From Nemertoderma westbladi (Eukaryota; Animalia; Xenacoelomorpha): a stretch of DNA of 54,160 nucleotides. The notes beneath the pieces are model-generated. The model saw only the letters and a list, made by a program, of their open reading frames with translations, ran no database searches and was not told where the DNA came from. Below are positions 9,016 to 52,801 of the stretch, piece by piece; position 1 is the first letter of the stretch, and each line of letters starts with the position of its first letter. The position numbers and the translations under genes are program-made. The stretch is taken from assembly GCA_032718475.1 (NCBI GenBank), contig JAUCBJ010003262.1, positions 1 to 54,160 on the forward strand, given 5' to 3'.

Positions 9016-9173
9016 ATTATCGATTTTATAATAAAGAGATACTGCATAATTGGATTGTTGGAATGCAGCTGCTAATCGAAGGTATATGGTGTCATTAAAA
9101 CGGGAATCGCAATAAATAATTATCTCATTAATGATAATTATATCCCTGATTGCTATTTATAAGCTCCTATATT

Positions 9174-21264: not shown

Positions 21265-21269
21265 AATAC

Positions 21270-22513
21270 TGTTCGCGCTTTCAGACCTTTGGCAGTTTAA
21301 CCCGCCAAATTATGATGTCTTCTAGATAATAAATCACTTTTAGCCTATGACAAGTATTTAATTCACTACACTAGTCGAAACCAATCTGTGCGCGATCATT
21401 CACCCGCTGGATATACCCGGGAGATTGGGTTCGACGGCTTAATCTTATTGCTATGTAAGCCTAATGTATTATTCGACTGACAGTATTATATAATCTCTGA
21501 CAATATTATTCACCTTCGGGGAATATTAACAGTTCCTTTAGGACGTGGCGCTCTATCTATATAAACAGAGTTATGACTTAAACTACTCACAACGATATGG
21601 CTTAGTTACAATTCACATATATGGCGCATTCTTTAGGAAATGCTTCGTTATCAGTCTCACTCATACACAATGCTGCACAATACTGCACACTGATCTGCCG
21701 ATCTTCACTGATTTTAGTCACATATAAAAGGAACACGGACCGAATCATGTAGGGTCTATCAAATAACATTAGATTCACTTCAAACCACTCAACATAGGTC
21801 GCAATCATTTATCTGTAACCTTTCTCTCTTACCTTCGGTATATCAAGAATATTGGGTTTTCGGGGTTATTTGTCGTTATTCCAAATATAATAATTCATCA
21901 ACCATATTATGAAGAACTGACAGTAAATAGCAATATAACAATATAAAAGTATGCACAGTGTTACACAGTATGCAGTGTATGCAGTACTGCAGTATGCAGA
22001 TAACGGATATATGTCCTTATAATTAAGCCTACTAGTGTAGGGCTAAAGCAGAAAAGCACAAAATACTCCAAAGCCGTTCTTCCTGGCTTAGAATCACCAA
22101 CAACACTGAAAAGAATAACTATAAGAATACCAGCTACCCTTATTCCACGAAGCTCCCGTCCAACACAGAGAAAGAGCAGTGAGATAGGAAAATTCAGTTC
22201 AGTAGCTCTGTGATAGGTCAAAATCAAAGCCAACTCAAATCCTATTGGCAGATACAGAAAGCAGGGCTATGGGGCAACGTGGCAATATCAGCCGTTAGCC
22301 GTCGTCATGGTAGCGACACTGTTTTCAAGAGTATCGAGCTTTTACGTCACGGAATTACGGATTATGTCCTCTAAAGTACAAATACAGAAGAAATAGCTTT
22401 TATGTCCGCTAAAACACCAGTACAGCAAGGACACGGCCTTTTTATGCCTGGTAAACCAACCACAGAGTACTTTACGGGGATAATAACCGGCTAATTACGC
22501 AAAAGCTTTTACA
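21270..22513 (-). repeat. Element 1 3' LTR
   Basis: Matches 31919-33162; two substitutions noticed (21537/32186, 21691/32340). Confidence 0.97.
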
Positions 22514-22527
22514 CTGCTCCGAGAAAA
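22514..22527 (-). promoter_or_regulatory. Element 1 PPT position (sense TTTTCTCGGAGCAG)
   Basis: Abuts the 3' LTR; similar to the same position in element 2. Confidence 0.55.
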
Positions 22528-22591
22528 TGGGATTTAAGTCTATAAAATATAACAAATCACAGTTTCTAAAATATAAAGATACTCTAAACAG

Positions 22592-25529: not shown

Positions 25530-28500
25530 TTACGTTATGGAGTCCCTAGATGTTTGAAGGATTAGGGAGGTGGTCGTGGGAAGAGAATCTTGCCTTCCAC
25601 AGTTTCCGGAGAGTCCTCCATTCCCTTCCGGTAAACACAAACGACCGACTGGGTGATTGAGTCGCTGCATCCTGAATACAATTCCAGGTTTCCTCTTCGT
25701 CCTGGAATAGTGACGATAGAAACATCGCTCAAAGTATATGACGGCGTCACAAAGCCGATTCCAGGAGCTATAGTGGTCCGTCGCTCTCTGCAGGAGAGGT
25801 GAGAGTCCCTGCGAGACGTCTGATGTTCCAGAGCTCCAATCGCTCTCTCTGATCTTCATGAAGGATCCACTCGCGGTGGGGAGGTCCAGATCCACGGCGT
25901 CGTCCCTGGCAATATGTAATACCGACAGATCTATCCCGGGTTCAAATAACTCCGCTCCACCCGTCCGGGTTTTAGGTTTAACTTTCTCCGCTCCCTTGGC
26001 TGGTCTAATCTCAGTCGGAGTAAGATGGGGAGGCCATTCATCCTCCTTACTCAGGAAGTCGGGTTCACCTAACCGGTCTGTAGTATCTGTCAGTTCTTGA
26101 GGAGTTGCTCCTCTGGAAGCGATGTCAGTTGTATTCATCGTCTTGGGGCAATATCTCCATTGATCTACATTGGAGTTAAGATTGTCATTATCTGAGGAGT
26201 ATGGTGTTCCCTCAGTTGGGTCGTCTCCCTCACTAGTATCATCTTCCCATTCACTCACCTGGCAGACGCGATCTTGAAGCAGTCTTTCTCTGAGCGTTCT
26301 ACGGGAAGGTCCAGTAAGGTACCAACCTACTCTAGTTCTTACCGCATAGGTCTGAAGTGGTTGCGGTTGAGTAGGTCGTTTCTCTAATGTCTCCAGCGCC
26401 TCATGCGCGTTTTGACCGATTAATATTTGTACTCCAGGATAATCGGTGTCGAATCTAGGGATGTTAAGTTGTTGGGCATGATCATCTTCGTCCCAATTAT
26501 AAGGTTCCACTTGGGTGGTAGCGAAGTTCTTTATTGCCACCATTTTTACTGACCTTATACTGTATTCTCCTAGTTTATCCTGTGGAGTGGACAACTCACC
26601 TATATAATAGTCGGCAGCTACAGTAGAATTCCAAACCTGCATGATCCCTGACATGTTTAGCTTGGTTCGGAACTTGGGTTGTCCAGCAAAGATGTCCTCG
26701 GCTAGTTCCCTATCGATGAATGTTCCCGTGCTGCCGGAGTCCAGGAGGGCGTTCACTATATAGCTCTTCTGAGGTCCGTGGACCCGTAACTGGACTACAG
26801 GAAATTCTCGGATTCCTATATTGGAAGTTGGCGCTTTCCAAGATGGTTGTTGATCTGAAGTAGTTAGGGTGAGGTCGCTGTCTGTGTCTTTCTCATAGAT
26901 GAGTGCTCGATACACTGCGGTGGTGTTTATTAAGTAACAGGATTCGTTTTCGTCGGAGAACTCGTCCGTATAGAATCCTTCCATCTCAGATTGATCAGTG
27001 TCGTTCACATCACTGAATTGGACATGTAGTTCGGACTCACTTACCTGACTAGGGCTGTTTCGTTCGAATTCCGTGTGCAACAAGATATGATGTTTTGCGC
27101 CGCACTTTGCACACCTTGCGTCGGAGTAACAGGTTCGCCGTTGGTGTCCTCGTCTGAGGCAATTATAACACAACCGCTTATCCCACATGACTTCACGTCT
27201 ATCCTTTAGTGATTTCCTCAGGAATTTATCACACGCATTTAAACGGTGGGGCCCGTCGCATAGCACACATTTCGGCTTGATGTTACTTACTTTAACCTGT
27301 GCTATGTGGTGCACACTTGTTCTTTCCTCGGGCTTTCTCACCTGAATTCTTTTAGGAGACGTAGGAAGGGTTTTTTGTACCGGTTCCCTTCTGTCATTGG
27401 GTCGGGACTCGGATTTACTTACCTGATCTTTAGGCATTTTATTGACATAATAAGATCTGTCAGTGTCTTTCCCGCTGTCCTCTCCTTGAGAAGTTTGGCT
27501 TTCACCGTCGTCGGCATAACATACTGGTGTTACCCTTCTCCTAGAAACGGGTTTCTCACTTACCTTGTTTTCCAATGTCTTCTCTCTGGACTGCCTTAGG
27601 AGCTGTAATTTCACTTCTCTATCTAAGAATGACATGAGATCAGTCATGGTAGGGTCTCGTCGTTGTTGTTCCATCATATATAACACCTTCTTGTCCCAGC
27701 GTGTACCTACTCCACCCTTGGGCAAAGTAGATGCTAAGGCTCCTACAACCATAGAATTCTGGTATTCATGAGACTTACCTAACCAATCTAGTTGTCTACA
27801 GATCTCCTGAATCTCATCGGAAAACTCTATAATCCCGCTGCTAAGAAACTTTTGGGGCGCCATTAATTTCGCATATAAATACCTAGCTATGTTAGTCCTA
27901 TTACCATACCTGATGTTTAGTGTATCCCAAACTTGTCTTAATCCATCTGGATGTCCAATAAATTTTAACGCCATTGACTTGGGAGATCCTTCCAAGCACT
28001 CGATGAGGTATCTAAGTTTTTCTCCATTAGATAGTACAGAGTTCTGTATGTTATCTTTGTAATATTCATTAAAAGGTAACCATTTCATCTCATCTCCATT
28101 GAACTTGACGATCTCTCCCACCTTTACCGCTTGCCGGGCTTCGGTTCTAGCCATTTGACGCGTAAAACTTTCTTGGGCCATCGTGTTATTTAATATCGAA
28201 TTATCGGTATATAAATTTCTCGGATTATGATCAGTTCTATAGGGAATATCATTATCAACAGGTCTATAATTACCCTTAATAGGGTTCACTATAGGAGTTT
28301 CTATTTCGCTAGCAGTATAGATGCGTGTAGGCTCCACACCTTGCGCATGGGATACTTCAGACCTAACGGGTTGACACATTGTTACAGGGGGTGGTGGTAT
28401 ACCCTTTTGAGTATTTACTAATTTATCGCGTTCTAACGCGATACTTTGCTGCACTTCTTGCAACTCTAGCCTACTTTCCCTTACTGTGCCCTTGAATTGC

Positions 28501-29660
28501 TGGACAGTCTCCTGCATCTGCCCGAGCAGGATATCCATCCCCCGCCGTCCCTCGTCCACCCATTCGACCGCCGAAGCGGGAGTCGCCAACGTTGTAGCGG
28601 GTGGACGATGGACAATGGACGACAAATTATGAATATTTCGCTCGGGACCCAGGACCTGAACTGTCTCTGGGGCAGTTCTACGGGGCACAGGTAGCTTAGT
28701 GCTATGCAGAGGGAATTTAGAGGTAACTTCAGGGAGCACAGGGGTGTCTATCACCGAAGGGGTGATTTCGAGAACAGGCCTAATTATTTCAGGCTCATCT
28801 ACTATAGTAGGGAGTCTTTCTATTTTAATTATTTGGTCTGTGGGTTCTGTACTGCCTAAGTTGGTGCTATTTAGTTGCCTTCTAACAGCTGGAGGCAAAT
28901 CAGGCAATTTCTGACGGTGGAATGTTCTTTTACGTCTGCTTAGACGAGATCTATTTCCTTTGCCTTCAGTATCGGTGGTATCGCCTTCCTCAGATGATGT
29001 ATATCCCTGCCTTTTGGGAGTAGATCGATTCATCATCTGCATATTACTAGCTGTTAACTGTTTATTTATGCAGTCTTGATTCTCCTGAATGTTTTCTAAT
29101 TCTAATAGGGTGGTTTCTTCAGTCGCTCTCCGTTCTGCTTCTGCCACTGCCTCTGCCGCCTTTCTTTCAGCTTCGGCCGCTTTTGCTTCTGCCGCTGCCT
29201 CTGCCGCCTTTGCCTCTGCCGCTGCCTCTGCCGCCTTTGCCTCTGCCGCTGCCGCTTTTGCCTCTGCCGCTGCCTCTGCCGCCTTTGCCTCTGCCGCTGC
29301 CTCTGCCGCTGCCGCTTTTCTTTCTGCTTCTGCAGCTACCACTACTGCTTTCTTTCTGTCTTCTATACGTTTTTTCTTTACTTGTTCTTCTTGGACTCGT
29401 GTCAGGCGGAGTTGTTCATCAAATTTAGCCTGATTCGCAGCCCTCATTTCCACATCGATGGCATCCAACACAAGCTTGGTTCCTTCGCTATTAGGGCTAA
29501 GTCCATCTAACCTTCTTCTCAATTCGTCATCACCTAAAAAACGTTGATAGTCCGACAGATAGATGTCAATGGCATCCCTCTTATGCGGTTTCTCTGCTGT
29601 CACTTCACTCTCGGTTGTATCTAGTAGACTGTCTGACAGGTTCTGCTTTGCGTCAGACAT
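25530..29660 (-). CDS. Element 1 Gag-protease polyprotein with deleted RT / most RNase H / integrase (1376 aa)
   Basis: KFNGDEMKWLPF capsid-like region; three knuckles CVLCDGPHRLNAC, CYNCLRRGHQRRTC, CAKCGAKHHILLH; protease ALLDSGS; AVRTRVGW; then directly QWRYCP..N..DIASRG and YSSWNRL; no YxDD or DDE motifs. Confidence 0.93.
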   Translation of the reverse strand: MSDAKQNLSDSLLDTTESEVTAEKPHKRDAIDIYLSDYQRFLGDDELRRRLDGLSPNSEGTKLVLDAIDVEMRAANQAKFDEQLRLTRVQEEQVKKKRIEDRKKAVVVAAEAERKAAAAEAAAEAKAAEAAAEAKAAAAEAKAAEAAAEAKAAEAAAEAKAAEAERKAAEAVAEAERRATEETTLLELENIQENQDCINKQLTASNMQMMNRSTPKRQGYTSSEEGDTTDTEGKGNRSRLSRRKRTFHRQKLPDLPPAVRRQLNSTNLGSTEPTDQIIKIERLPTIVDEPEIIRPVLEITPSVIDTPVLPEVTSKFPLHSTKLPVPRRTAPETVQVLGPERNIHNLSSIVHRPPATTLATPASAVEWVDEGRRGMDILLGQMQETVQQFKGTVRESRLELQEVQQSIALERDKLVNTQKGIPPPPVTMCQPVRSEVSHAQGVEPTRIYTASEIETPIVNPIKGNYRPVDNDIPYRTDHNPRNLYTDNSILNNTMAQESFTRQMARTEARQAVKVGEIVKFNGDEMKWLPFNEYYKDNIQNSVLSNGEKLRYLIECLEGSPKSMALKFIGHPDGLRQVWDTLNIRYGNRTNIARYLYAKLMAPQKFLSSGIIEFSDEIQEICRQLDWLGKSHEYQNSMVVGALASTLPKGGVGTRWDKKVLYMMEQQRRDPTMTDLMSFLDREVKLQLLRQSREKTLENKVSEKPVSRRRVTPVCYADDGESQTSQGEDSGKDTDRSYYVNKMPKDQVSKSESRPNDRREPVQKTLPTSPKRIQVRKPEERTSVHHIAQVKVSNIKPKCVLCDGPHRLNACDKFLRKSLKDRREVMWDKRLCYNCLRRGHQRRTCYSDARCAKCGAKHHILLHTEFERNSPSQVSESELHVQFSDVNDTDQSEMEGFYTDEFSDENESCYLINTTAVYRALIYEKDTDSDLTLTTSDQQPSWKAPTSNIGIREFPVVQLRVHGPQKSYIVNALLDSGSTGTFIDRELAEDIFAGQPKFRTKLNMSGIMQVWNSTVAADYYIGELSTPQDKLGEYSIRSVKMVAIKNFATTQVEPYNWDEDDHAQQLNIPRFDTDYPGVQILIGQNAHEALETLEKRPTQPQPLQTYAVRTRVGWYLTGPSRRTLRERLLQDRVCQVSEWEDDTSEGDDPTEGTPYSSDNDNLNSNVDQWRYCPKTMNTTDIASRGATPQELTDTTDRLGEPDFLSKEDEWPPHLTPTEIRPAKGAEKVKPKTRTGGAELFEPGIDLSVLHIARDDAVDLDLPTASGSFMKIRESDWSSGTSDVSQGLSPLLQRATDHYSSWNRLCDAVIYFERCFYRHYSRTKRKPGIVFRMQRLNHPVGRLCLPEGNGGLSGNCGRQDSLPTTTSLILQTSRDSIT

Positions 29661-30980
29661 GCTTATGTGTACAGTTGAAGGTCTACTGCCGTATTACAGT
29701 CTGAGCAAGTCTAGTAACTCAGTATTAACTGCTAGCCCAGTAATTAATTACCGGTACTGCTACTCAGTGTAGCGTGATATATATAATATATTAGAATACC
29801 GGTATGCTTATAGTATATATAACTATTATTACAGACTAGGTTTATCACCGAATACCGGTATAATTTTAGCACAAATATATATAAATATATAATAGGCCTA
29901 TCGTGGATACCGGTATGCAGTTTACACTTATAGTGTATATATATAAGTATAATTACAGACTAGAATTAATTACAGAATACCGGTATGATTTCAACCTAAA
30001 ATTTATAGAAATAAATATAATAAGCCTATTGTAAATACCGGTATGTCAATTATTTTAGAATAATTGAATTTCTGAACTTTAGGGTTACTTGGTTACTTTA
30101 ACTTACTTTATTACCGTTATTTAAGCAGTAGTCCAACTGATATTGAGACCTAATTGTTATATGGTAGGCCTACTATTTATAAATCGTTAGATTTGATTTA
30201 TAATATATATATACCCGTTTTAATGGGTTTAGTCAATGTTTGAAATAAATGTTATTATTTCTGGGGTAATCACTACACAAAGCGGTACGCTTTCAGTGAA
30301 GTGTTACGTACAGGACACTAAAACAAATGATTCTAATTTACCTAAGTTACTTAATACTACAAATTACGTACAATTCGGGTGAGATTACAATCTCTAAATA
30401 AACACAAAAATTTACAAATACGCAAATACGAATTTCAGGGTAATTTTACAAGAAGTCTACAAACCAGCCTAACAAAGGGTTAGAAAACTGGTTATTACAA
30501 CGGACAGGGTACTACGGTATTTGAAAATAATAAGTAGTAGTAAATACACTGCGTTGTCCAGATAGGAAAATACCACCGCCTGACGACCTATAGCCGTATC
30601 GCTATAGGTTCTACGTTATGTATCACGGAGTGTTCCTACCTAGAAGTTAATAGAGCTAATCGAACGTGCCTATCAACCACTTTACAACACAAATATAATG
30701 CCTACACTAATTACTTTCGGTAAGCACTGTACACTAAACCCTAAATTAGGTACGAGTACTTGTACAACAGATAATCAGTAGTTAAATATACTTGAACAGC
30801 TAAAAGAACCACGGCATCTGCTGGAGTGACCGGTGCACAAAATCACCAGTCTTTACCTACGCCAAGCAGCCCGTGTAGTACCGGGGTTAATTTAACTATA
30901 GCGGTATGTATAACAAACACAATTATTGTAGGAACAAACTTGGGGAATGAATGTTGCGAATAATCGCATAAACTCTGAAT

Positions 30981-31549: not shown

Positions 31550-31906
31550 CGTCTGTACAATCTGATCAGGTTTACACGCCTTCTGTTCAATACTGGCCTA
31601 CAAATAAATAAAACTGACAGAAATAGGCCTAAGTAAAATCCCAATAAAAACCAGGCGTCCCCGATTAATTATTAAGACCTACCGGCATATATAATCAAAT
31701 CGAATAATACTGCTGTACTTATACGGAAGTACCGGTTAGGACAGTTAGGCCTACGGACCTACAGAAGTACCGGTTCTGGCAGTTGGACCTACGGGCCTAC
31801 GGCAGTACCGGTTCTGGCAGTTGGGCCTACTGACCTACAGATGGACCGTTCAGGTTTACCGGTTGACCGGTACTTTCAACTTTATTGCTTACTGCAATAA
31901 AGAAGC

Positions 31907-31918
31907 TATATCCGTTAT
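31907..31918 (-). promoter_or_regulatory. Element 1 PBS position, non-tRNA (sense ATAACGGATATA), complementary to LTR 32649-32660
   Basis: Flush with the 5' LTR end; no TGG; 12/12 complement inside its own LTR. Confidence 0.8.
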
Positions 31919-33162
31919 TGTTCGCGCTTTCAGACCTTTGGCAGTTTAACCCGCCAAATTATGATGTCTTCTAGATAATAAATCACTTTTAGCCTATGAC
32001 AAGTATTTAATTCACTACACTAGTCGAAACCAATCTGTGCGCGATCATTCACCCGCTGGATATACCCGGGAGATTGGGTTCGACGGCTTAATCTTATTGC
32101 TATGTAAGCCTAATGTATTATTCGACTGACAGTATTATATAATCTCTGACAATATTATTCACCTTCGGGGAATATTAACAGTTCCATTAGGACGTGGCGC
32201 TCTATCTATATAAACAGAGTTATGACTTAAACTACTCACAACGATATGGCTTAGTTACAATTCACATATATGGCGCATTCTTTAGGAAATGCTTCGTTAT
32301 CAGTCTCACTCATACACAATGCTGCACAATACTGCACACAGATCTGCCGATCTTCACTGATTTTAGTCACATATAAAAGGAACACGGACCGAATCATGTA
32401 GGGTCTATCAAATAACATTAGATTCACTTCAAACCACTCAACATAGGTCGCAATCATTTATCTGTAACCTTTCTCTCTTACCTTCGGTATATCAAGAATA
32501 TTGGGTTTTCGGGGTTATTTGTCGTTATTCCAAATATAATAATTCATCAACCATATTATGAAGAACTGACAGTAAATAGCAATATAACAATATAAAAGTA
32601 TGCACAGTGTTACACAGTATGCAGTGTATGCAGTACTGCAGTATGCAGATAACGGATATATGTCCTTATAATTAAGCCTACTAGTGTAGGGCTAAAGCAG
32701 AAAAGCACAAAATACTCCAAAGCCGTTCTTCCTGGCTTAGAATCACCAACAACACTGAAAAGAATAACTATAAGAATACCAGCTACCCTTATTCCACGAA
32801 GCTCCCGTCCAACACAGAGAAAGAGCAGTGAGATAGGAAAATTCAGTTCAGTAGCTCTGTGATAGGTCAAAATCAAAGCCAACTCAAATCCTATTGGCAG
32901 ATACAGAAAGCAGGGCTATGGGGCAACGTGGCAATATCAGCCGTTAGCCGTCGTCATGGTAGCGACACTGTTTTCAAGAGTATCGAGCTTTTACGTCACG
33001 GAATTACGGATTATGTCCTCTAAAGTACAAATACAGAAGAAATAGCTTTTATGTCCGCTAAAACACCAGTACAGCAAGGACACGGCCTTTTTATGCCTGG
33101 TAAACCAACCACAGAGTACTTTACGGGGATAATAACCGGCTAATTACGCAAAAGCTTTTACA
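31919..33162 (-). repeat. Element 1 5' LTR
   Basis: Matches 21270-22513; lies upstream of gag on the minus strand. Confidence 0.97.
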
Positions 33163-33573
33163 AATACGATATTTTTGAGTGTGATATTCGTGATCAGTAT
33201 CCCAGAAAACCCATAATATCTAACCATCAGGTTGATTTGGTGATGACGTTTGATTATCAATTTTGTGCTATTTTTCGTGCCGCGCATTGACACAAATACA
33301 AAAATGCCCTAATCAAAAATGTACGATATATTTCAGTGTTATATTATTGATAAGAATCCCAAAAAAGATATATGGTCATAAATTTGTTCCCTATTTCACC
33401 TCCTTATTTGTAAGGCTACCTGTTCGGTTAAAAACGGTTCTGTTGTGCTGACTGCATGACTGCTGTATTGTTACTTCTGTACTTTCGTTGTTCTGTTTTT
33501 GTATTCTAGTATGTAGTGTGCTTGACTTATATATTTCTAGGTCTTATTTCTGTGTTTAGTGCTGCATTTAATT

Positions 33574-36184: not shown

Positions 36185-38108
36185 TAATTGAAGAGATACG
36201 CCTATTCCTACTATCGGAAGAGACGGTAACAATACCTGCAATATCCTACTGTAAAGTTTGTAAATCAAATCATAAATCCGACCTCCTCACCAAAACAGTA
36301 AACTCTAAGTAAGCGAATATATTGCAGTATCGATCTCTTATAACCGGTGAGGCAGAAAACAGTCTACGAGCAGACAAACTTCGATAAAACAAAATCCCGC
36401 GCAGCGAATCCTAAAATCAGGCTGACTCACTGACGGACTAAGGGGCTCGTATACTTTGCCGCGGTGTGATTTATATGGTTGGGCAAAGGGACGCTAGCTA
36501 GGTATAGAGCAGATTTGGAGATGTCTAACTAGCGGGCAAAGCACAGTACGGACAAAGTTAATTTTATATATTTCGAGGTGTAAATAATTTCTAACGCGCG
36601 TGTGTTAATTCTGAACGGTCAAAACAGTTTTGCTCCTTCACATATATAATTACTGGGTACGGTGTGCATTTTACGAATATTCTAATTTTGTAACTTGTAG
36701 GTCCAATACTCACGAATGGTAAGGTTCCTTCCCCTCTTGCGTATTTCCAGGACTCAAATTCAGGCATAAGGTTAATACTACGCCCAGAATTCGGCAATTT
36801 TAGGTACCAGGTCCCTGATACTAAGAAGAGATGTGTTAGTTTACTACTGTAGGCGTACAGGTACTAATAGCTATCCTGGCTCCTATCTAGAATTTTAGTC
36901 ACCCAGGTAGTCCGGGTAACTTCCTATTAGGGCGTTGGCGGGGACACGGTAGATGTTAGTATATCCCTGATAGCCTCAATTTATTTGCGCCTAGTGTAAA
37001 CTGCCCTACCGCCTGAACGGTACAATCCCAATTCAGGTGAAAACACAGCAACCCCCCTAGCCTACAAGTTCTGATGTAATGGACACTGTCGTACTGCAAA
37101 TAGTCGCACACACACCTGTACTTAGCAAGAGTTAAGCGTACAGTTTGCTGCACCCTAACCAATGTGTATGCCTTGTACCGGTGTGCCTACGTCCTATCTG
37201 CGTACTAGTATCTGCTCTCTCTCCCTCCCCCCCGTAGGAATGTGAAGGTCTACTGTGGGTTTTCCTGAATCAAGACAGTACAGTCCCTATGATGTAATTT
37301 TAGGCTTGCAGCGTGTCACTACGTCTACCTTTTGATCTTTTGGTCTTATACTTAGGTAGCAAGGATCGAACGCTGTCTAACCTTTCAGGCGATGGGCGAA
37401 TAACTTTAAATGGTATTGCGGGTTGTCTCTCGTCTACATTCCCGTGATGTTCCCGTTCATTGCTGCGGCCCGATCTCTAGCCGGCCATCCTGTCCCTGAG
37501 TTTGTTCACCGTAGTGAATTCATAGTAAAACAGAAAAGCTGAGAGAATATTCTGACTTTATTACAGAAGACACAATTATAATACAATGTAATCTGAGAAT
37601 AAACTAAGCACGACAGAATATTGATAAGATAATCTGAGAAAGATTGAGATATAAGATTGAGATTGTGATAACTAATGAACGAATCGCACCTTTATATACT
37701 AAATTTGTGCTGCAATCAATCGAGAAAATTCTCGATTGTTCTATGGGTTCTAACAAGGTTTTAAAGATAGCTTATTGGTCCAGCTAATATATAACTTGCA
37801 CGACATTGGTTACAATCAAATAACTACAGCCTTATTGGTACAGACAAATGCAATTAATTTGTAGCGGTTAATTTAAATGAGTTGAAATTCTGCACAAAAA
37901 ATAATTCGCACTTACTAGGATTCGAACTCGATACCTACTACACATATAATTTCCAACGCTCTACCAACTGAGCTACTGAACCACTTGACCGATAGATACA
38001 CAATAGATAGAACCAATACTAATGAGAACTCAAAGCAATCTTTACAAAGTTAATTCGAATAAAATAAAATTTTGAAAATCCACGGCATTTAGGGAATATA
38101 ATTCTATA
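36185..38108 (-). repeat. Element 2 3' LTR
   Basis: Matches 51005-52927; only difference noticed is one extra C in the C-run near 37230. Confidence 0.97.
37896..37982 (-). ncRNA. tRNA-like Pol III cassette in U3 (3' LTR copy)
   Basis: TAGCTCAGTTGGTAGAGC D-arm / A box, GAGTTCGAATCC B box, T6 run just downstream; anticodon arm and acceptor stem not intact. Confidence 0.8.
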
Positions 38109-41326: not shown

Positions 41327-44300
41327 TTATTTACTAGTATTAGGTGGAGATTTGTAATCTCCAGACTCGTTACGAGTCTCTTCAAGAAGTACGAGACGTT
41401 GAGTCGGTCTGTCTACTGTACGACCGTCAATTGTCCGTACCGTCACAGTCCTTGTCACTCCATCCATAGATGGATGTGTGGCTAAAATGACACCTGTTAT
41501 CCAGAAGCGTCTTTTTAGATTCACTTCTGCCAACAGCACGTGATCTCCCGGCTTTAATGCGCGGGTGTTATTGTACCAGTTTGTTCTGGCAGAAATAGAG
41601 GGCAAATAATGGTTTTGCCATATTTCCCAGAATTTGTTAGCCAGTAGTTGCGTGATTTTCCACGCTTTTCTACCGTAACTGTCGCTTTCTATTGGAATAG
41701 AAATCGGCGTTAATGTCGTCGGTGCCTGCATAAGCAGGTGTGCTGGTGTTAAAGCAAACTGGGATTGTTTGTCATCGGGTACTAATACTATTGGTCTAGT
41801 ATTTAGTATTGCCTCGATTTCAACAAACAATGTTGTCAGTTGGTCGTCTGTTAATATGTGGTTTACTGGAATGACCTTTGCCATTGCTGTCTTTATAGAT
41901 CTAATCAGTCTCTCCCAGACTCCGCCTCTCCAAGGACTATCTGGAGGATTGAACTTCCAAACAATCTTGTGAGGTTGCAGTTCGTTTGAGATTTGATCAT
42001 GATCTAATTTCTTAAAGGCTCTGGCAATTTCATTCCGAGCACCAACGAAGTTTGTCCCTTGGTCTGAGTACAAGCATTTTACTAGTCCGCGTCTAGCGAT
42101 AAATCGCCGCAGTGCTAGTATAAACGCGTTGGTGGAAAGATCCATCACACGTTCAATATGAACTGCCCTACTGGACATACATGTGAAAATCAGTCCCCAG
42201 CGTTTTACTAGTATACGTCCACGTTTCGTATGTATGGGACCAAAGCAATCAATTCCAGTCTCTGTAAAAGGTGGTCTGAATGCTTGAAGTCGTGCTTGTG
42301 GTAGTTCACTCATTTCTTGGGTACCTATTCTAGAATGTACCTTTTTACAAATAATACACGTACGTGTCACTGAACTTAATGCTTTACTGGGTCTAATTAA
42401 TACAAATCTAGTACGTAAGTAGGAAAGACAGTGGTGTCTTCCAGCGTGTTTCAGATGTAAATGTGCGTCCAGTATCATTGCACGTTGTAGTTCGTGATGT
42501 TGCGGTATTATTATTGGGTACCTAAAGTTTGTGTTAAAGTCAATGTTTTGAAGCCGAGATTTATGACAAATCAAGCCATTATAAATAATCGGACTCCAAC
42601 TCAGTATCGGTGACGACTTGATTGGTTGACCTTGATTTATAGATGTGAATTCGCGCGCGAAATATCGCAGTTGGTAATGGCGAATTAATTTAATCTCACA
42701 CCTGTCAATCTCAGCCAATGTAAGTCGACGTGTAAAGTCTCGTTTGCCTTTAACGTATTGTACGAAACGTACAATCCACGCTAATTTTCGGCAAGCGTTT
42801 GACCAAGAGTCTGTTAAGTTTACGATACGGTCGACGTAAGTATTTGTGACGTCATCAGGTAAGTCAATGGAGAACTTGGAAGGTTTTGAATTACTAGAAG
42901 GGCCCACGGGTCCGCCGGTAAGTATTCCCTTGTTGACTGTTGATCCGTCCGGGTCTACAAGTAATTTGTCCTTCTTTGTCTTCTTACCTTGATTGTCGGT
43001 ACTTTGTAAGTCGATCGCTAATGGTGGTTTGAACTCTATGGGGTCAGCAGGTTTTGGTAAGCTTATTTTTCTGCCGACATTAATCCCAGGTTTCACCATG
43101 GGTTGTAAGTTCGGTATGTCTCTTGAGCGCAAAGTAACACCTGTATTTACATTAGCGTAGGTACTACCCACATCTGTAATACATGAGGTTTCACCATGCT
43201 TATGGTTGCTCAAGTGTGTCAAAATTGGTAGTTTGTCAATACAAGGCCGCTCCAATAGGGAAACTGCGGCTTTATCGTTAGTCAATACATTACTAGTGTC
43301 TAGTCGACTGTCTAGTAATGTGTCTGGCGATACGTCTGGTAACGTATCTGGTTGTTTGTCAATAGAAGGCCGCTCCAATAGGGAAACTGCGGCTTTACTG
43401 TTTGTCAGTGTGTTACTAACGTCTGGTGGAACATTTTGTGACATGTCTGTCAAAACGTCTGGTTGACCGTCTAGTAACGTGTCTGGTTGACCGTCTGGCG
43501 ATATGTCTGGTGTAGAAAGGCTCGCAAGTCTTCCTCTCTTGACCTTTGAAGTTATATCTTTCCATTTCGCCTTCGGTTTTTTCTTGAGTTTTGCCGCCGT
43601 CGTCTTTTTCTTTGTCTTCCCCTTTTTTGGTTTCTTGATTTCGGCGTCCTTAGGAATGGTGTTGGACTTGTTGTCGTACAACGGAGGCCAATCTTGTGTC
43701 GATTTCTGCAAGAACTGGGGTCCGTGTTGCCAAAACTCTTTGTTCTCCGGTTTACAGAATTCCTCAGGCATCATTCCTCGCGACGCAATATCAGCTGGGT
43801 TTTGTGGTCCGGGACAATGTCGCCAATCCTCCTTTATTGAACGGTCTAGAATTTCCGCGCGACGGTTAGCTACGAATGTCTTGAATTCGAGTGTGTCGTT
43901 GTTTATGTAAAATAAAACCAACATCGCGTCAGTCCAATAAAATATCTGTAAACTCGACTGTAGTTCTGTCTGTATGAGGTTCACGATGGTGGTTGACAGG
44001 GTCGCGGCTTGTAGCTCGGCTCGTGGTGTCATCATATACTTAGTAGGCATGGTCTTAGCCTTAGAAGTAATGAGCGAAACATCGAACTCGTCCGATTCTA
44101 CTTGTCTGCGCAAATACGCTGCCACACCAAAACCGTTGTCACTGGCGTCAGAAAAACAGTGTAGTTCCAAGTTGTCAGGAAATGTACTCTGTAATGGAAA
44201 GTAAACCCTGGGTATGAAATAATCCTCTAGTGAAGATAATTCCGCCTCCCAGGTTTTCCATAAGTCCACTTGGTCTGATGAAATCGGCTCGTCCCATGTT

Positions 44301-47300
44301 AGTCCATCCTTCCATATACTGCGCATATAAATGCGGGCTTGCAGTATCACTGGACTGATGAATCCTAACGGATCGAACAATCGGCTCAATTTTGACAAGC
44401 ATGATCTCTTGGTCAGTGTGTTTCCTTGACTGTCCAGTCTCACCTTCACTCGAAAGTTGTCTGTGTTTGGGTCCCAAAAGAGCCCCAACACCTTAGTCGT
44501 CGGTAGTGGTTCGAACTCTAGGTCTATATCACCACCTCCACGCTCAGTAGTTCCGAATGAGTCAACTAATTCGGCACTGTTTGAGGCGAATTTGGTGAGG
44601 TTAAAACCTCCGCCCGCCAAGCAGTCCCGTAATTGATGTGCTACTATTGTAGCACGTTCTACTGTGTCGCAACTTTGTAAACCATCATCAACGTAAAAGT
44701 CACGTTCTACAATTCTAATTATCTCTGGGTCATACAGATGTTTCTGATCTCTAGCGGCTTGCTTCAAGGCGTACATCGTACAATTTGGGCTGTCTCTGGC
44801 ACCGAAGACGCGAACTTGCATTTGGTAAGTCGCTGGTGGTAGACTTAAGTCTCCTTCCGGATACCAGAGGAACCGCAAACTGTCTCTGTCTCGCTCTAAC
44901 GCTTTCACTTGGTGAAACATCGCTTCAACGTCGCAAGTAAAGGCTACTTGACGCTGACGGAAGCGCATAATCACCCCCATAAGATAATTATTCATGTTCG
45001 GTCCATCCATCAACTCACTATTGAGGGACATTCCCTCAAACAGAGCCGCACAGTCATTGACTACGCGTACTTTATCTGATTTGTCGGGATGTCTCACATA
45101 GTGATGTGGCAGGTAGTATGTCTGGTCGGTCACTCGCTCCGGGTTAGTCATTCGGATAGCGTATCCCTTTGTCAAATATGTCTTCATCTGAGTGTTGTAC
45201 TGCAGATGGGCTTTCTCGTCCTTTAATAGACGTTGTCGGATTGAGTGTAGACGTCTTAAAGCCAGTGGGTAGTTATTTATAAGTTTAGGACTTTGGCTAC
45301 GCCATAACATCCCCACCTCGTAATGTCCGTCCTCCGTCTGTCGGATAGTATCCTCCATGATCTTTAGAGATTGTTTCTCCTGTTCCGACATACAAGGGTC
45401 GTAGCTACCAGGTTCAGCTGTATCTTGTTCTAACCACCTGATAGTCTTCTCCGTTAATTCTTTGTCCAAGGCGGCTTGTTCCAACTGATGAATTTTCAAC
45501 GCGTCATCGTCGATATCGATGGGCACTGTTGAGGTTATTGGGGTAGGTAGACTCGCAAGCCTATCATCTGTCGTCGATGGAATCTCTAGCTGATTCGTCT
45601 TCCCCCCAAGTCCTAGACTCACCTTGTGGGTTAGCTGCTCCTTGTGACTTATCATATTAGTTACCCGTCTGTCATGTTTTGTCGACTGTAGTGTAGTATG
45701 GTTCACGTCGTGTGAGAAGGAATGAATTGAATTTGTAGTTAATAAACTACATGTACTCTGTACATCGTCTTCCTCGTCACTTACGTCTAGTGTGCGCACA
45801 GGCGCTCGAGTATACCACCCTATCGGCGTTCTGCAGGCGTATGCGTTTCCTGCTACAACTGCCGATGGTCTGGTTTCCCACACCTGATGTAGGTTGAATT
45901 GGTCTGTCCCGATCAGCATTGCTACCGATCTATAATTGACAGGACATTCAGGTACACCAAGGTGTCTGAAATACTTACGGTCCTCCAGAGATTGTTCCGG
46001 CACTGGACCTAGTAGGTTACTAAAGTCCTTCGTGGCCGCAAAGGTTAGATCTCTAAAGGGCAACAAAGACCTCTCCCTCTCGCTGTGTTGCGATTTTGGA
46101 AGAAGAGAGTCTAAGTCCAACTTAACTCGTGTCACTGGTATTGCACGCTGTCCGTGCATACTACTTACTGTATAACTGACGTGCTTACCTTGTCTAAGAT
46201 CTGTTACGACGTCAGCTATCTTTTCGTCCACGTAGCTATGGGATGAGGCTGAATCTAGAATCGCATAGATCCTCTTGCTCCCTTTTGTGCCAGTAACCTT
46301 GATCGGGATTACACTGAATCCCTTCAGTTGATCAGTAGTCAGGAGCGCGATCGACGGTTGTTCGTCTCCATTGGAATATTCGTCATCGTCTTCTGATTCT
46401 TCGTCCGACGATCCGGATTGTTCTGAGAAGCAATCCTCAATATGTGTCACGAAGGTCGGAGTCGTTTTCGATTCTCGTTTTCGGTAGGCCGCATCGCATC
46501 TCGCTGCTGCTTCCGGGTGTTCCCTGGCGAAGCGTTTCGTCGGCGTGTGGCTGTCTGTGTGGAGCAGACCGTCATGGTTGCGTCCACAGGATGGACAAGT
46601 GTCGGTATTTGGGCAATCCTTGCGCACGTGTCCGTGTCGCGTACACCGCCAACAAGAGTCCAGTGGCCGTATCTGCAGCCGTCGTTCTTCCGAGTTCAAC
46701 TCGCGAAATTGTCGACAACCTCGTAACTTGTGACCAATATACCGCTTACCTAGATGTTCGCAGTATTGGCAGCCGTTGAAGTCGGTGCTGAGTTGCTGTC
46801 TCGTCTGTTTCGTCCCAATGGGCGCAGATACTCTATTACCGTCTGAGAATTGTCGTGATTCCGTCGGTGTGGCGTAAGTGGCCGTCTTTGTGGATGTTGT
46901 CTGGGGTTTTTGTCGGTTGGAGGATGGCAGTGTGATTCCTTCTGCCACGATATGTTGGTCGGTGTAGTTAGATCGAGTTTCTACTACCGCCTCCCTGGAT
47001 ATTAAAAGGTACACATCTTCTAATTTTAGGAATCCTCCCCGCTCCTCTCGCTGGTATTCGACCTTCCTCCATTCCCGACGAAGTCGATGGTGGAGTCGTC
47101 CTATTATCTTTAATAGAACTGTAGGGGTATTCCCGTAATCAAGTTGTCCAATTGATCTTAAGGTAGTGATAGCGTTCTTGATCTCGTCAGCTAGTTTTAG
47201 TAAGTCGACGGGTTTAGTGATAGCCCCTCCCTTACAGAGTTCTTCTATTACTGACCTGGCCATACTCACTGTACCTCCGTATATCGAAGTCAAACGATCG

Positions 47301-50197
47301 TACGCTAGTTCGAAAGCGTCCGGTACACCGACGAAAGTCTCCGCCAAACGTTTAGGTTCTCCTGACAACGTTTGAAGCAGGTAATTGAACTTCTCCCGTG
47401 ATGTAAAGGCGCACACGGCGATCTGGGATTCGATATAGTCTACGAAGGTATGCCAGTGTTTTGAGCTACCGGAGAACTTCGGTGGTTGTTGTACCGGCAA
47501 TCCCTGTCTGGCTGCGAATTTCGCTATCTCCTCGGCAACGTTCAGAGTTTCGCGTCCTTGGTTGGTAACTTGGTTAATATCCCTTCTTGGCGCTTTTCCC
47601 TGATACGATGTGGGGTTTGAAGGTACCGGTCTTTGTGGTTCCTTCTGGTGTCTATTGTGTTCGAATTCGGAATTTCTCGAACTGTCGGTTTGAACTTCCT
47701 CCAGACGCTCCTCGATCTGAGCCAACTTATTGACAACTGGTCGCAGAATGTCGGCGAACTGTTGTGTACTAATTGCGTCCGTTGGTTGTAACGCCTTCTG
47801 TGTTGGTGTATTCTGTGGAGGATTATCTGCAAAAGAGTTGTCTGAACGCTCGCGTTTATATTCATCGGCCGCCCCCGTTCTAAATACCTCGCGTTTCGGG
47901 TAATCCGATTCGCTCGAAGTACTACTGTCATCTGGATATGGTGGTCGACGTGCTCGCGTCCGTTGCGTCGTACTAATTCTAACGGTTCGTTTCGGAACAT
48001 CGTCTCGCTTTCGTTGTTCGGTAGGCTCACAAGTCTTCCTCGAAGTCGTAGATTGCGATGTAAACTGGTTGAATGGTCGCGTCTCCACTGTTCTCCGTTG
48101 TTCGGTAGGCTCACAAGTCTTCCTCGAAGTCGTAGATTGCGATGTAAACTGGTTGAATGGTCGCGTCTCCACTGTTCTCCGTTGTTCGGTAGGCTCACAA
48201 GTCTTCCTCGAAGTCGTAGATTGCGATGTAAACTGGTTGAATGGTCGCGTCTCCACTGTTCTCCGTTGTTCGGTAGGCTCACAAGTCTTCCTCGAAGTCG
48301 TAGATTGCGATGTAAATTGGTTTGGTGGGCGAATGACAGCATTTGAACCCAAAGGCCTTGTTGGTCGAAACGTCATTGGGTAAGCGTAGTGTGTAACGGG
48401 TTTAGGTGTCAAAGGTGGACTCACCTGTTTAGTCGTCAGTAGTGCAGGTCCGGTCAATAAACTACTACGATCCGTAATCGGTGGGTTACTTACCTTGACT
48501 TTCGGAATAGGCGACGACGTTGCTCTTGGCGGTGTAAACTCGTCCGGAATAACAAACCTGTGTTCCGTCGCACCATGGATAGGAGAAATGTTACTACTAC
48601 CCGCAATCGAAACAGGTTCCTTAGTCGTAACCGGTGCAAACATATGAGTTACCTGTGGGAATCGTTGACACACGTCTTTTACTAATTGTCGTTCCCGTCC
48701 GGGTGCTCCTACGCTTCCTTCCTTCTTCCGTTCCTGAATTTGGCGATGTCTTACCTCTAACTGGTCCAAATCATGTCCGTCACGAGATCTCATCGATCGA
48801 TCGCGGGCCTTTTGATCCAGATCTTCCTCAGCGTTCGCTAATTCTCTCGCCTTCTTCTCGAGTTCGAAATGAAGTTTAGCTGTCTTCTCTCGTTGTTCCG
48901 TTTGTTGTCGTTGCGCCTCAAACTCCGCTTGTCGTATAGCAGATTGAGCTTTTATTTGCCGTGTTCTCATTTCGGCCCGTGCTTCCGAAACTAACCTTTC
49001 TCGTTTTAATTCCGCCGCTGCCGCTGCCGTTTGTCGCTCCAGTTCGGCCGCTGCGTTTTGTCGCTCTAACTCGGCCGCCGCCGCTGCCGCTTGTCGTTCT
49101 ACCTCGGCCGCTGCCGCTGCCGCTTGTCGTTCTACCTCGGCCGCTGCCGCTGCCGCTTGTCGTTCTACCTCGGCCGCTGCCGCTGCCGCTTGTCGGGCAA
49201 TGTCTACTTCTAATCTTTCCACTTCAGCTGCTTCTAATTCAGCTTGTTCCTGTAGATGAGAGATTCTTGCTATATTCGCAACGCGTAGCTTCTCTTCCTC
49301 TACTGCTGCCTGCATCACTAGAAGTTGAGCTTGTTCTTCCATTTCTTGTCGTTGTCGGTGGAATTCTTGCTGTTGTCGAGCAACTTCTGACGTGACTATA
49401 CTTCCCTCGCAGATTTCGCTACGAATACTTACCAGCGATTGATTTAGTATTCCCGGTGCCGATTCGATTCGTACGGGTGATATTTCCCTCGTATATTCCG
49501 GCACGGTTTCCCAATCTCCGACGTCTTCGCCGCACATACGTAAGTGGTCCGTCAGGTGTTTTAATTGTCCATCCAGTCGATACAGTTCCTGTTCTTCCTC
49601 GGGTTGTAATAATTCGTCCGAAACTGACTCACCTAACAACTGGTCCGCTTGTTCCTGTTGTATCTGTCTAATCGTTGACTTAAACTGAATCAGTTTCTCT
49701 CTAGCGATCATCAGTTTCTCGAGGATTCTAAGTTGAGTATCCATGTCCTGTCTCTGTCTAGCTAGATCTTGTAGACCAATTAGGTTATCTACGGACTTGT
49801 GTACTCTACTTTGTACTCTAACCTGGAGGGTGTAGAACTCGAATCGAGACATCGGAGCGGTCAACTCGTCTAATATGCGTTGGCCTTCCCCAATACTCCT
49901 GGTTATATGCGCCATGTAACCACCGACGCTTCTAATCACACTTTCTGTGCTTCCTGCTGAACTTACCATTTCCGTTTCCCTATATCTAGGTTGCGGAACA
50001 GCCAGAAAGTCCTCGGTCCTGCCGTCGCCTCGTACTACGGCATCCGGTACTCCCGTTGGATGTACTGGTGACGCACACGGTGTAGGTTCGGTAGGCTCAC
50101 GAGTCTTCCCCTGTTGTCCTTCCGCTGCTGACTTATCCGCGTCACACGAGTCATAGTCGGTAGGTGTGTTCTTCGTATAGTCTTGTTTGTCACTCAT
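41327..50197 (-). CDS. Element 2 Gag-Pol polyprotein (2956 aa), BEL/Pao order PR-RT-RH-IN
   Basis: PKFSG capsid-like region, three zinc knuckles, ILDSAS protease, YYLPHH, RVVNDC, DVEAMFHQV, FYVDDG, HCFSDAS, PRAELQAA, WTD, NPADIASRG, HHCC, GIDCFGP, YSDQGTNF, GGVWERLI, C-terminal GPY/F-like region. Confidence 0.98.
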   Translation of the reverse strand: MSDKQDYTKNTPTDYDSCDADKSAAEGQQGKTREPTEPTPCASPVHPTGVPDAVVRGDGRTEDFLAVPQPRYRETEMVSSAGSTESVIRSVGGYMAHITRSIGEGQRILDELTAPMSRFEFYTLQVRVQSRVHKSVDNLIGLQDLARQRQDMDTQLRILEKLMIAREKLIQFKSTIRQIQQEQADQLLGESVSDELLQPEEEQELYRLDGQLKHLTDHLRMCGEDVGDWETVPEYTREISPVRIESAPGILNQSLVSIRSEICEGSIVTSEVARQQQEFHRQRQEMEEQAQLLVMQAAVEEEKLRVANIARISHLQEQAELEAAEVERLEVDIARQAAAAAAEVERQAAAAAAEVERQAAAAAAEVERQAAAAAAELERQNAAAELERQTAAAAAELKRERLVSEARAEMRTRQIKAQSAIRQAEFEAQRQQTEQREKTAKLHFELEKKARELANAEEDLDQKARDRSMRSRDGHDLDQLEVRHRQIQERKKEGSVGAPGRERQLVKDVCQRFPQVTHMFAPVTTKEPVSIAGSSNISPIHGATEHRFVIPDEFTPPRATSSPIPKVKVSNPPITDRSSLLTGPALLTTKQVSPPLTPKPVTHYAYPMTFRPTRPLGSNAVIRPPNQFTSQSTTSRKTCEPTEQRRTVETRPFNQFTSQSTTSRKTCEPTEQRRTVETRPFNQFTSQSTTSRKTCEPTEQRRTVETRPFNQFTSQSTTSRKTCEPTEQRKRDDVPKRTVRISTTQRTRARRPPYPDDSSTSSESDYPKREVFRTGAADEYKRERSDNSFADNPPQNTPTQKALQPTDAISTQQFADILRPVVNKLAQIEERLEEVQTDSSRNSEFEHNRHQKEPQRPVPSNPTSYQGKAPRRDINQVTNQGRETLNVAEEIAKFAARQGLPVQQPPKFSGSSKHWHTFVDYIESQIAVCAFTSREKFNYLLQTLSGEPKRLAETFVGVPDAFELAYDRLTSIYGGTVSMARSVIEELCKGGAITKPVDLLKLADEIKNAITTLRSIGQLDYGNTPTVLLKIIGRLHHRLRREWRKVEYQREERGGFLKLEDVYLLISREAVVETRSNYTDQHIVAEGITLPSSNRQKPQTTSTKTATYATPTESRQFSDGNRVSAPIGTKQTRQQLSTDFNGCQYCEHLGKRYIGHKLRGCRQFRELNSEERRLQIRPLDSCWRCTRHGHVRKDCPNTDTCPSCGRNHDGLLHTDSHTPTKRFAREHPEAAARCDAAYRKRESKTTPTFVTHIEDCFSEQSGSSDEESEDDDEYSNGDEQPSIALLTTDQLKGFSVIPIKVTGTKGSKRIYAILDSASSHSYVDEKIADVVTDLRQGKHVSYTVSSMHGQRAIPVTRVKLDLDSLLPKSQHSERERSLLPFRDLTFAATKDFSNLLGPVPEQSLEDRKYFRHLGVPECPVNYRSVAMLIGTDQFNLHQVWETRPSAVVAGNAYACRTPIGWYTRAPVRTLDVSDEEDDVQSTCSLLTTNSIHSFSHDVNHTTLQSTKHDRRVTNMISHKEQLTHKVSLGLGGKTNQLEIPSTTDDRLASLPTPITSTVPIDIDDDALKIHQLEQAALDKELTEKTIRWLEQDTAEPGSYDPCMSEQEKQSLKIMEDTIRQTEDGHYEVGMLWRSQSPKLINNYPLALRRLHSIRQRLLKDEKAHLQYNTQMKTYLTKGYAIRMTNPERVTDQTYYLPHHYVRHPDKSDKVRVVNDCAALFEGMSLNSELMDGPNMNNYLMGVIMRFRQRQVAFTCDVEAMFHQVKALERDRDSLRFLWYPEGDLSLPPATYQMQVRVFGARDSPNCTMYALKQAARDQKHLYDPEIIRIVERDFYVDDGLQSCDTVERATIVAHQLRDCLAGGGFNLTKFASNSAELVDSFGTTERGGGDIDLEFEPLPTTKVLGLFWDPNTDNFRVKVRLDSQGNTLTKRSCLSKLSRLFDPLGFISPVILQARIYMRSIWKDGLTWDEPISSDQVDLWKTWEAELSSLEDYFIPRVYFPLQSTFPDNLELHCFSDASDNGFGVAAYLRRQVESDEFDVSLITSKAKTMPTKYMMTPRAELQAATLSTTIVNLIQTELQSSLQIFYWTDAMLVLFYINNDTLEFKTFVANRRAEILDRSIKEDWRHCPGPQNPADIASRGMMPEEFCKPENKEFWQHGPQFLQKSTQDWPPLYDNKSNTIPKDAEIKKPKKGKTKKKTTAAKLKKKPKAKWKDITSKVKRGRLASLSTPDISPDGQPDTLLDGQPDVLTDMSQNVPPDVSNTLTNSKAAVSLLERPSIDKQPDTLPDVSPDTLLDSRLDTSNVLTNDKAAVSLLERPCIDKLPILTHLSNHKHGETSCITDVGSTYANVNTGVTLRSRDIPNLQPMVKPGINVGRKISLPKPADPIEFKPPLAIDLQSTDNQGKKTKKDKLLVDPDGSTVNKGILTGGPVGPSSNSKPSKFSIDLPDDVTNTYVDRIVNLTDSWSNACRKLAWIVRFVQYVKGKRDFTRRLTLAEIDRCEIKLIRHYQLRYFAREFTSINQGQPIKSSPILSWSPIIYNGLICHKSRLQNIDFNTNFRYPIIIPQHHELQRAMILDAHLHLKHAGRHHCLSYLRTRFVLIRPSKALSSVTRTCIICKKVHSRIGTQEMSELPQARLQAFRPPFTETGIDCFGPIHTKRGRILVKRWGLIFTCMSSRAVHIERVMDLSTNAFILALRRFIARRGLVKCLYSDQGTNFVGARNEIARAFKKLDHDQISNELQPHKIVWKFNPPDSPWRGGVWERLIRSIKTAMAKVIPVNHILTDDQLTTLFVEIEAILNTRPIVLVPDDKQSQFALTPAHLLMQAPTTLTPISIPIESDSYGRKAWKITQLLANKFWEIWQNHYLPSISARTNWYNNTRALKPGDHVLLAEVNLKRRFWITGVILATHPSMDGVTRTVTVRTIDGRTVDRPTQRLVLLEETRNESGDYKSPPNTSK
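48012..48322. repeat. 84-bp in-frame tandem repeat in gag, ~3.7 copies
   Basis: NQFTSQSTTSRKTCEPTEQRRTVETRPF repeats, essentially identical at DNA level. Confidence 0.95.
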
Positions 50198-50993
50198 TTC
50201 AGTAGTTGTAAGTCAAGTAAAGTGAGTGTCAAAGTATCGAGTTTACCGTATTTTATCTAAACGGTACTAATTACAGTCTTATAAAATTAGCCTACCGGCC
50301 GATTTTATAGCAGATGGATAAAATTAGCCTAAACGGCCAATTTTACAGCAAATAAATGTCACGGAATAAGTATATAATAAAATTAGCCTAGCGGCCAATT
50401 TTATAACAAATAAATCGGATAACGATATGCGTTATCAAAAGGTAAATTAAATACAATAATACGGACTAATTCAGCAATGAACAAAGAAATCGTACGGAAT
50501 GCATAAATACTTGAGACAGTGGAACCCACAATAATTTTAACTAATACGGTAATGCCTAATTTATTTATGCAACTTTTCGAACTCACCCACTCCAATAATT
50601 CTCCAGAAAAACAGATTCCCAGATACAAACCGAACGTGAACCTTTCCGTTTTTAACGTTGCGGACGAAACGCGATTTTCCCAACCAAAGTTGTTGGGTTA
50701 TCTATCTCCCAAACTTGCTAAACACGGTCTTGCTCCCGTTACAGCCTAGAAATGAGTTCTGAATCCTGAAAAAACAAAAGAGTTAGGTTTTACTTTACGA
50801 AAAATTTTGTACCGGTACAATATGGTATTTAAACCCCTTTAAACACCGGTATTCAATTCCAAAAATATTACACGCGGTTCAAATCAAATTTTATTTCAAA
50901 ATATTAGCACTTAGCTAATCAAATATAAACTTTTACCTCAAAATACAAAATTTTCAAATAACTTTAGTCCTACCGAACCGTAGTTCAGTAAAA

Positions 50994-51004
50994 CACATTC
51001 CTAC
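50994..51004 (-). promoter_or_regulatory. Element 2 PBS position, non-tRNA (sense GTAGGAATGTG), complementary to LTR 52053-52063
   Basis: Flush with the 5' LTR end; no TGG; 11/11 complement inside its own LTR. Confidence 0.8.
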
Positions 51005-52507: not shown

Positions 52508-52657
52508 CCTTTATATACTAAATTTGTGCTGCAATCAATCGAGAAAATTCTCGATTGTTCTATGGGTTCTAACAAGGTTTTAAAGATAGCTTATTGGTCC
52601 AGCTAATATATAACTTGCACGACATTGGTTACAATCAAATAACTACAGCCTTATTGG
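52508..52657 (-). promoter_or_regulatory. Candidate Pol II promoter in LTR: three CCAAT boxes and TATATAAAGG
   Basis: Sense CCAAT at 52653-57, 52624-28 and 52593-97; TATA at 52508-52517; TCATTAGTT follows. Confidence 0.6.
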
Positions 52658-52714
52658 TACAGACAAATGCAATTAATTTGTAGCGGTTAATTTAAATGAG
52701 TTGAAATTCTGCAC

Positions 52715-52801
52715 AAAAAATAATTCGCACTTACTAGGATTCGAACTCGATACCTACTACACATATAATTTCCAACGCTCTACCAACTGAGCTACTGAAC
52801 C
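52715..52801 (-). ncRNA. tRNA-like Pol III cassette in U3 (5' LTR copy)
   Basis: Same sequence as 37896-37982. Confidence 0.8.

Follow-up and report, generated by a model that had tools for sequence, protein, structure and literature searches.

LTR complementarity at the primer-binding position in two BEL/Pao elements of Nemertoderma westbladi and its likely role in self-priming

How is reverse transcription begun in an LTR retrotransposon that has no tRNA-type site behind its 5' LTR? The question is raised by a stretch of DNA from Nemertoderma westbladi (assembly GCA_032718475.1, contig JAUCBJ010003262.1), 54,160 nt in length and referred to here as the window. The window contains two LTR elements, E1 and E2, both on the minus strand. 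The profile of the Belpaoviridae from the ICTV gives tRNA priming only, with an 18-nt primer-binding site (PBS) for tRNA-Arg or tRNA-Gly, and calls replication in this family poorly understood (PMC8742986). Neither E1 nor E2 possesses the 18-nt tRNA-complementary PBS of that profile. Pairing between the LTR and the PBS is clear in E1, and the feature is most likely a self-primer.

Anatomy of the two elements

E1 extends from 33162 to 21270 on the minus strand and has TG..CA ends. It is flanked by a 5-bp target-site duplication, GTATT, that is intact in both copies (33163..33167 and 21265..21269). The 5' LTR (31919..33162, minus) is 1244 nt long, is bounded by TG..CA, and ends ...GCGAACA at 31919. 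The 3' LTR (21270..22513, minus) differs from it by 2 substitutions in 1244 nt. The two LTR copies and the GTATT duplication fix the LTR ends of E1 independently of any pairing. A short purine-rich tract, GGAGCAG (22514..22520, minus), precedes the 3' LTR and is, judged by its position, likely the PPT; E2 carries GGAGCGG just before its own 3' LTR.

E1 has an ORF of 1387 aa (25530..29693, minus) that is composed of Gag (DUF1759, E 1e-13) and a protease-like region, followed by a 44-50-aa remnant of the RNase H end. The Gag and protease regions are ~25% identical to those of E2. When the E2 polyprotein was compared with all of E1 by tblastn, only Gag, protease, and the RNase H-end remnant were found, and RT, most of RNase H, and integrase were missing; E1 is therefore a non-autonomous derivative. 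Its near-identical LTRs would thus point to recent copying by the enzymes of another element. The autonomous partner was not found among the 2081 candidates of the relatives search, where longer relatives of the Gag-protease region were limited to 2 weak matches of 25% identity, a result that says little for or against such a partner. No relatives were present in viral contigs. The E1 leader contains 38-nt tandem repeats (31722-31835), just behind a hairpin predicted next to the PBS, and a 289-nt duplication (30981-31549). Before the 3' LTR, ~3 kb (22514-25530) are without a long ORF, the longest being 134 aa (23572-23976).

E2 extends from 52927 to 36185 on the minus strand, with TA..TA ends and a 5-bp duplication. 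Its 5' LTR (51005..52927, minus) is 1923 nt long, also TA..TA, and the duplication that flanks it is CTAAC. The 3' LTR (36185..38108, minus) differs by one 1-nt indel. TA..TA ends are atypical, the usual form being TG..CA, yet they occur here alongside a perfect 5-bp duplication. The gag-pol ORF is uninterrupted, encodes 2961 aa (41327..50212, minus), and matches DUF1759, Peptidase_A17 (E 2e-40), and DUF5641; the match to Integrase_H2C2 is below its curated cut-off. E2 has its own RT, RNase H, and integrase, the mark of autonomy that E1 lacks. Against the best 120 of 835 matches, its RT-RNase H region shows 38-44% identity, and the named organisms among these 120 are marine invertebrates. A second ORF of 553 aa follows pol (38965-40626, minus). 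It has three Cys/His clusters that look zinc-knuckle-like by eye and no match in Pfam. A tRNA-like stretch is seen close to the LTR start at 52733-52810 (minus) and again in the 3' LTR copy of E2, where A-box-like and B-box-like words are followed by a donor-like word, GTAAGT. ARAGORN and Rfam detected no tRNA there or elsewhere in the window.

Both elements have the direct LTRs and target-site duplication of BEL/Pao (Belpaoviridae), together with domains of its Gag and Pol, of which E1 keeps DUF1759 and the protease region. Their Pol is of the BEL/Pao type and not of the Ty3/gypsy type, which places them outside the Tf1/sushi group. The close identity of their LTRs and the intact target duplications point to recent reverse transcription of both with the present leader. 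Both polyproteins also carry an Ala/Glu-rich repeat near the N-terminus (29116-29377 and 49014-49224), with 76% DNA identity over 114 nt.

The rest of the window contains other repeats. Related inverted fragments that are 88-96% alike lie on either side of E1 (13516-14287 and 33701-34631); one of them has an RVT_1 match and looks like a piece of a non-LTR element. An open frame of 421 aa (9150-10415, plus) with a match to Fam20C (E 2e-6) is located between inverted repeats at ~8519-8739 and 11068-11291. Tandem arrays are found at 1493-2132, 19974-20481, and 53512-54160, with units of ~38, 15, and 19 nt.

Complementarity at the primer-binding position

The primer-binding position of E1 is the 12-nt ATAACGGATATA (31907..31918, minus), directly after the 5' LTR. 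Its exact complement, the candidate self-primer, is located inside the LTR at 32649..32660 (minus; LTR positions 503-514), and the same 12-mer is present in the 3' LTR copy at 22000..22011 (minus). The match begins at the first base past the LTR and ends at 12 nt. In E2, the primer-binding position is the 11-nt GTAGGAATGTG (50994..51004, minus), and an 11-nt complement lies at 52053..52063 (minus; LTR positions 865-875) with a purine run next to it. The distance between primer and PBS is 730 nt in E1 and 1050 nt in E2. No TGG tRNA-type site follows the 5' LTR of either element, and no other primer site is visible there. Self-primers have been predicted from a complement of at least 10 bp that starts 0-5 nt after the LTR, as set out in PMC6317226. 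Under that definition, E1 has 12 nt and E2 has 11 nt, both at offset 0.

Dinucleotide shuffles of the LTR were used as a control. The E1 12-mer complement was recovered at the exact register in 0 of 15,000 shuffles, and in 3 of 15,000 when a 12-nt match could start 0-5 nt after the LTR. Only 2 of 9,393 interior 12-mers of E1 are complemented in its LTR, one of which is the PBS site. For the 11-mer of E2, the counts are 8/15,000 at register and 37/15,000 with a loose start, and 10 of 12,885 interior 11-mers are complemented. Between the LTRs of E1 and E2, blastn detects nothing significant, its best alignment covering 15 nt with E 0.29.

An earlier note on this DNA had described the 12-nt complement of E1, its coordinates including the 3' LTR copy, the exact register, the missing TGG, and the dissimilarity of the two LTRs, and all of these were confirmed. 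It had made no mention of the incompleteness of E1. It had also held coincidence to be unlikely. The shuffles agree, as do cross-pairing controls and the recurrence of the pairing with other letters in distant BEL/Pao families (see below). Its description of the two elements as natural covariation was right in that the pairing recurs in unrelated sequence, but this is not covariation on an alignment, E1 and E2 being too diverged to align in these regions.

Folding was predicted for a stretch of RNA that begins at the LTR site and runs 70 nt beyond the end of the LTR. In E1, the predicted primer:PBS helix has pairing probabilities of 0.82-1.0 at all 12 pairs, across a 740-nt leader, and in E2 the probabilities are 0.91-1.0 for 10 of 11 pairs, with the caveat that a perfect 12-bp match tends to pair anyway. 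A hairpin just behind the PBS position is predicted in both elements; that of E1 has 9 bp (31880..31902, minus) and starts 4 nt behind the primer-binding position. The purine run after the candidate primer of E2 is predicted to pair with the U5 end, whereas the E1 fold has no clear second helix there. Tf1 reportedly requires an adjacent stem like the retroviral U5-IR stem-loop.

The place of the site within the transcript is less clearly marked. The earlier note had predicted a transcription start near 32660, for which motifs offer no support. A TATA box is missing from E1 at -25 to -35 relative to the LTR site, and its TATA-like boxes are found only downstream of the site, at LTR 951 and 1022. 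The LTR contains no AATAAA, including just upstream of the site, and a single ATTAAA, at 1152. The PBS does not have an oligo-T start. In E2, the nearest upstream TATA box is 454 nt before the complement, with an AATAAA (547) in between. Among 16 relatives, only one has a TATA box ~31 nt before the primer; the missing box is common in the group, so it is not decisive. In 15 of these 16, an AATAAA or ATTAAA is found 11-254 nt behind the site, which is consistent with a site close to the beginning of R. A start of E1 downstream of the site would place the site in U3, and the Tf1 route would then fail.

Run X1 was taken as RNA by guess only and consists of contigs, which cannot show a start. Its depth drops from 40-75 to 9, 3, and 0 across 32573-32757, which fits a start near the site or LTR divergence equally and is therefore given no weight. 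One contig, which makes up 16.6 of the depth of 22.3, differs at two positions in the E1 PBS, 31914 and 31918. No matching change is listed at the LTR site, where the depth is only ~9. As ~9 is below 16.6, the LTR that belongs to this PBS variant is probably absent from the depth at the site. Contig alignments, X1 included, contain no GT-AG joint in the E1 LTR. A splice-built primer for E1 was also considered; it reached 11 nt under loose rules, was gone under strict splice signals, and was rejected.

Split and contiguous complements in relatives

Relatives were taken from metagenome contigs by RT-RNase H alignment, using the top 80 of at least 566 confirmed loci of BEL/Pao. Both LTR 3' ends are visible in 11 loci, which makes the PBS position independent of the pairing test; the LTRs of one of these, L057, are only 77% alike, and the LTR end of another, L050, was corrected by eye. 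A self-complement of 11-15 nt is present in 7 of the 11. In five (L010, L014, L024, L054, and L078) a GT-AG intron that has canonical signals interrupts it, and in two (L029 and L057) it is a contiguous 11-mer. The remaining four (L023, L050, L064, and L066, the last two being one family) have a TGG tRNA-type site and a self-complement of at most 6 nt. The self-pairing and TGG states are mutually exclusive, since none of the four TGG loci has a self-complement above 6 nt, and this is expected of alternative primers. When each PBS was paired with foreign LTRs, 0 of 154 cross-pairings reached 10 nt under strict splice rules. Under loose rules 3 of 154 reached 11 nt, all from L057.

A wider scan, which infers the LTR end from ACA and is less clean, gave matches in 18 of 52 loci, compared with 24 of 312 shuffles. 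The clade-wide mechanism that the earlier note had suggested holds only in part: 7 of the 11 loci with visible ends self-pair, but 4 of the 11 carry TGG sites, and most complements are intron-split. Fourteen of the 18 matches in the wider scan are spliced, and 14/14 begin with GT. Two contiguous matches were dropped, that of L064 because it is not at the LTR end and that of L032 because the LTR end is unverified. With near-copies merged, there are 13 spliced and 3 contiguous families.

In relatives, the pairing covers 10-15 nt, most often 11. Its first two letters are GT in E2 and in all 16 tabulated relatives, and the E1 PBS starts with AT. Among the 16 relatives, 9, as a raw count, have a purine-purine-A-C/T word whose end lies exactly 11 nt ahead of the 3' end of the pairing; in E1 and E2 the corresponding distances are 13 and 14 nt. 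The two LTR copies of L029 differ at the primer site, the upstream one (1-326) being splice-acceptor-like where the downstream one (6690-7103) has the contiguous primer. A single family may therefore have both intron-bearing and intron-less forms, in a contig that is perhaps chimeric and whose copies are 88% alike.

RT trees were made from E2 and the metagenomic loci; E1, without RT, has no place on them. The trees are unrooted, and gain cannot be told from loss. The large fast tree has 73 rows, 8 of the 80 loci having been left out for short matches, and a smaller tree contains 24 of the loci. Self-pairing loci are found within a starred clade of 16 rows and, separately, as L010/L014. The TGG loci make up two other branches. 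Contiguous forms never cluster, their 4 rows taking 4 changes, and either repeated loss of introns or independent origin would give this pattern. E2 sits on a long branch beside L001, L010, and L014 with support of 92/93, unstarred, and its position is not resolved in the 73-row tree. Its nearest row, L001, has no self-complement match and no recognizable 5' LTR.

Priming mechanism and known systems

Self-priming like that of Tf1 is probably what the complement serves, with E1 and E2 carrying, ready-made, a primer that in many relatives would be put together by splicing. In Tf1, the RNA's initial 11 bases anneal to the PBS, and RNase H cleaves after base 11, according to PMC7175516 and PMC4600332. 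By analogy, minus-strand DNA synthesis of E1 would be primed by a 12-nt piece of its own LTR RNA and not by a tRNA. The RNA would fold back, pairing the primer with the PBS; an RNase H would cleave immediately 3' of the pairing, after 32649; and the 3' end so created would be extended by RT across U5 and R. Both activities would be supplied to E1 in trans by an autonomous partner. Given a downstream poly(A) site, the cut could leave a usable 3' end even if the site is not at the cap.

In many marine BEL/Pao families, a primer of ~11 nt may be assembled by removal of an intron from the LTR part of the transcript. The spliced families have 4-7 nt of pairing 3' of the acceptor, so the end of the primer would need a further cut and would not be a splicing intermediate. 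A wider scenario is a serious possibility, although on balance slightly doubtful. A large part of BEL/Pao would have exchanged tRNA priming for an ~11-nt self-primer assembled by splicing. E1 and E2 would be intron-less descendants, with a primer that possibly lies hundreds of bases into a long leader instead of at the cap and a cut guided by structure alone that is possible in trans for RT-less elements, and self-priming would occur in all three LTR superfamilies.

Other roles for the pairing have to be weighed. The pairing may be selected but structural, closing or dimerising the genomic RNA or regulating its packaging or translation while another RNA primes. Such a role would suit the motifs, which place neither LTR site (E1 or E2) at the 5' end of the RNA, and the fold, which says only that the helix can form. 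It is nevertheless unlikely, given that the pairing sits exactly at the PBS position, is absent from the four TGG loci, and is accompanied by no other visible primer site after the LTR of E1 or E2.

A host RNA such as a half-tRNA or small RNA could also be the primer, the LTR match then being chance or a captured primer copy. Half-tRNA priming occurs in Ty1/copia lineages (PMC6317226). In E1 and E2 it is very improbable: the shuffle and cross-pairing controls argue against chance, and against capture stand letters that differ by family and, in 13 families, a complement that exists only across a predicted splice junction. The E1 12-mer and the E2 11-mer fit no anticodon loop, judged by eye only.

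The complement in E1 and E2 is most likely a self-primer, a known mechanism in a superfamily for which the literature searched does not describe it, with a splice-built form in relatives. Published accounts of self-priming exist for Tf1/sushi and Tcn1 (Ty3/gypsy), and for the TAR lineage (Ty1/copia) it has been predicted (PMC6317226). No report of it in BEL/Pao was found in the literature searched, subscription papers lying largely outside its reach. The terms primer, PBS, and tRNA do not occur in the accessible parts of the BEL/Pao surveys PMC3118150, PMC554778, PMC8556966, and PMC6238403, and those of PMC3601003 and PMC13524379 make no claim of self-priming for BEL/Pao.

If the self-primer is real, BEL/Pao would be the third LTR superfamily with self-priming. 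Many families would need splicing to make their primer, and the start of reverse transcription would be tied to RNA processing. The mechanism predicts exactly, and in a testable way, which RNA is joined to strong-stop DNA at its 5' end, with the cut after 32649. Filters based on a tRNA PBS would miss such elements. The window contributes two self-complement families, one of them RT-less. Within the BEL group, Cer7 of Caenorhabditis elegans has reportedly been proposed to encode its own primer. That primer is said to be tRNA-like and to lie in the 3' untranslated region, and not to be an LTR segment of 11-12 nt.

Tf1/Tf2 and Tj1 of fission yeasts, the Tf1/sushi group, and Tcn1 resemble E1 and E2, having no tRNA PBS and an ~11-nt complement within their own LTR. 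All of these are Ty3/gypsy chromoviruses, whereas E1 and E2 are BEL/Pao. Compared with the Tf1 group, E1 and E2 stand out by LTRs of 1.2 and 1.9 kb and by their wide primer-PBS gaps. The primer of many of their relatives is split by an intron, and no such case appears in the accessible portions of the Tf1-group accounts. The TAR lineage (Houba and Osr-1), plant Ty1/copia elements, has the same kind of LTR-PBS complementarity (PMC6317226). It belongs to another superfamily and another kingdom, and its self-priming is a prediction only, as it is for E1 and E2. The tRNA-primed BEL/Pao elements, e.g., Achilles, which has a tRNA-Tyr PBS (PMC4580426), share domain content and order, LTRs, and the 5-bp duplication with E1 and E2. 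These elements, among them L023, L050, L064, and L066, have TGG sites at the position where E1 and E2 have the self-complement instead.
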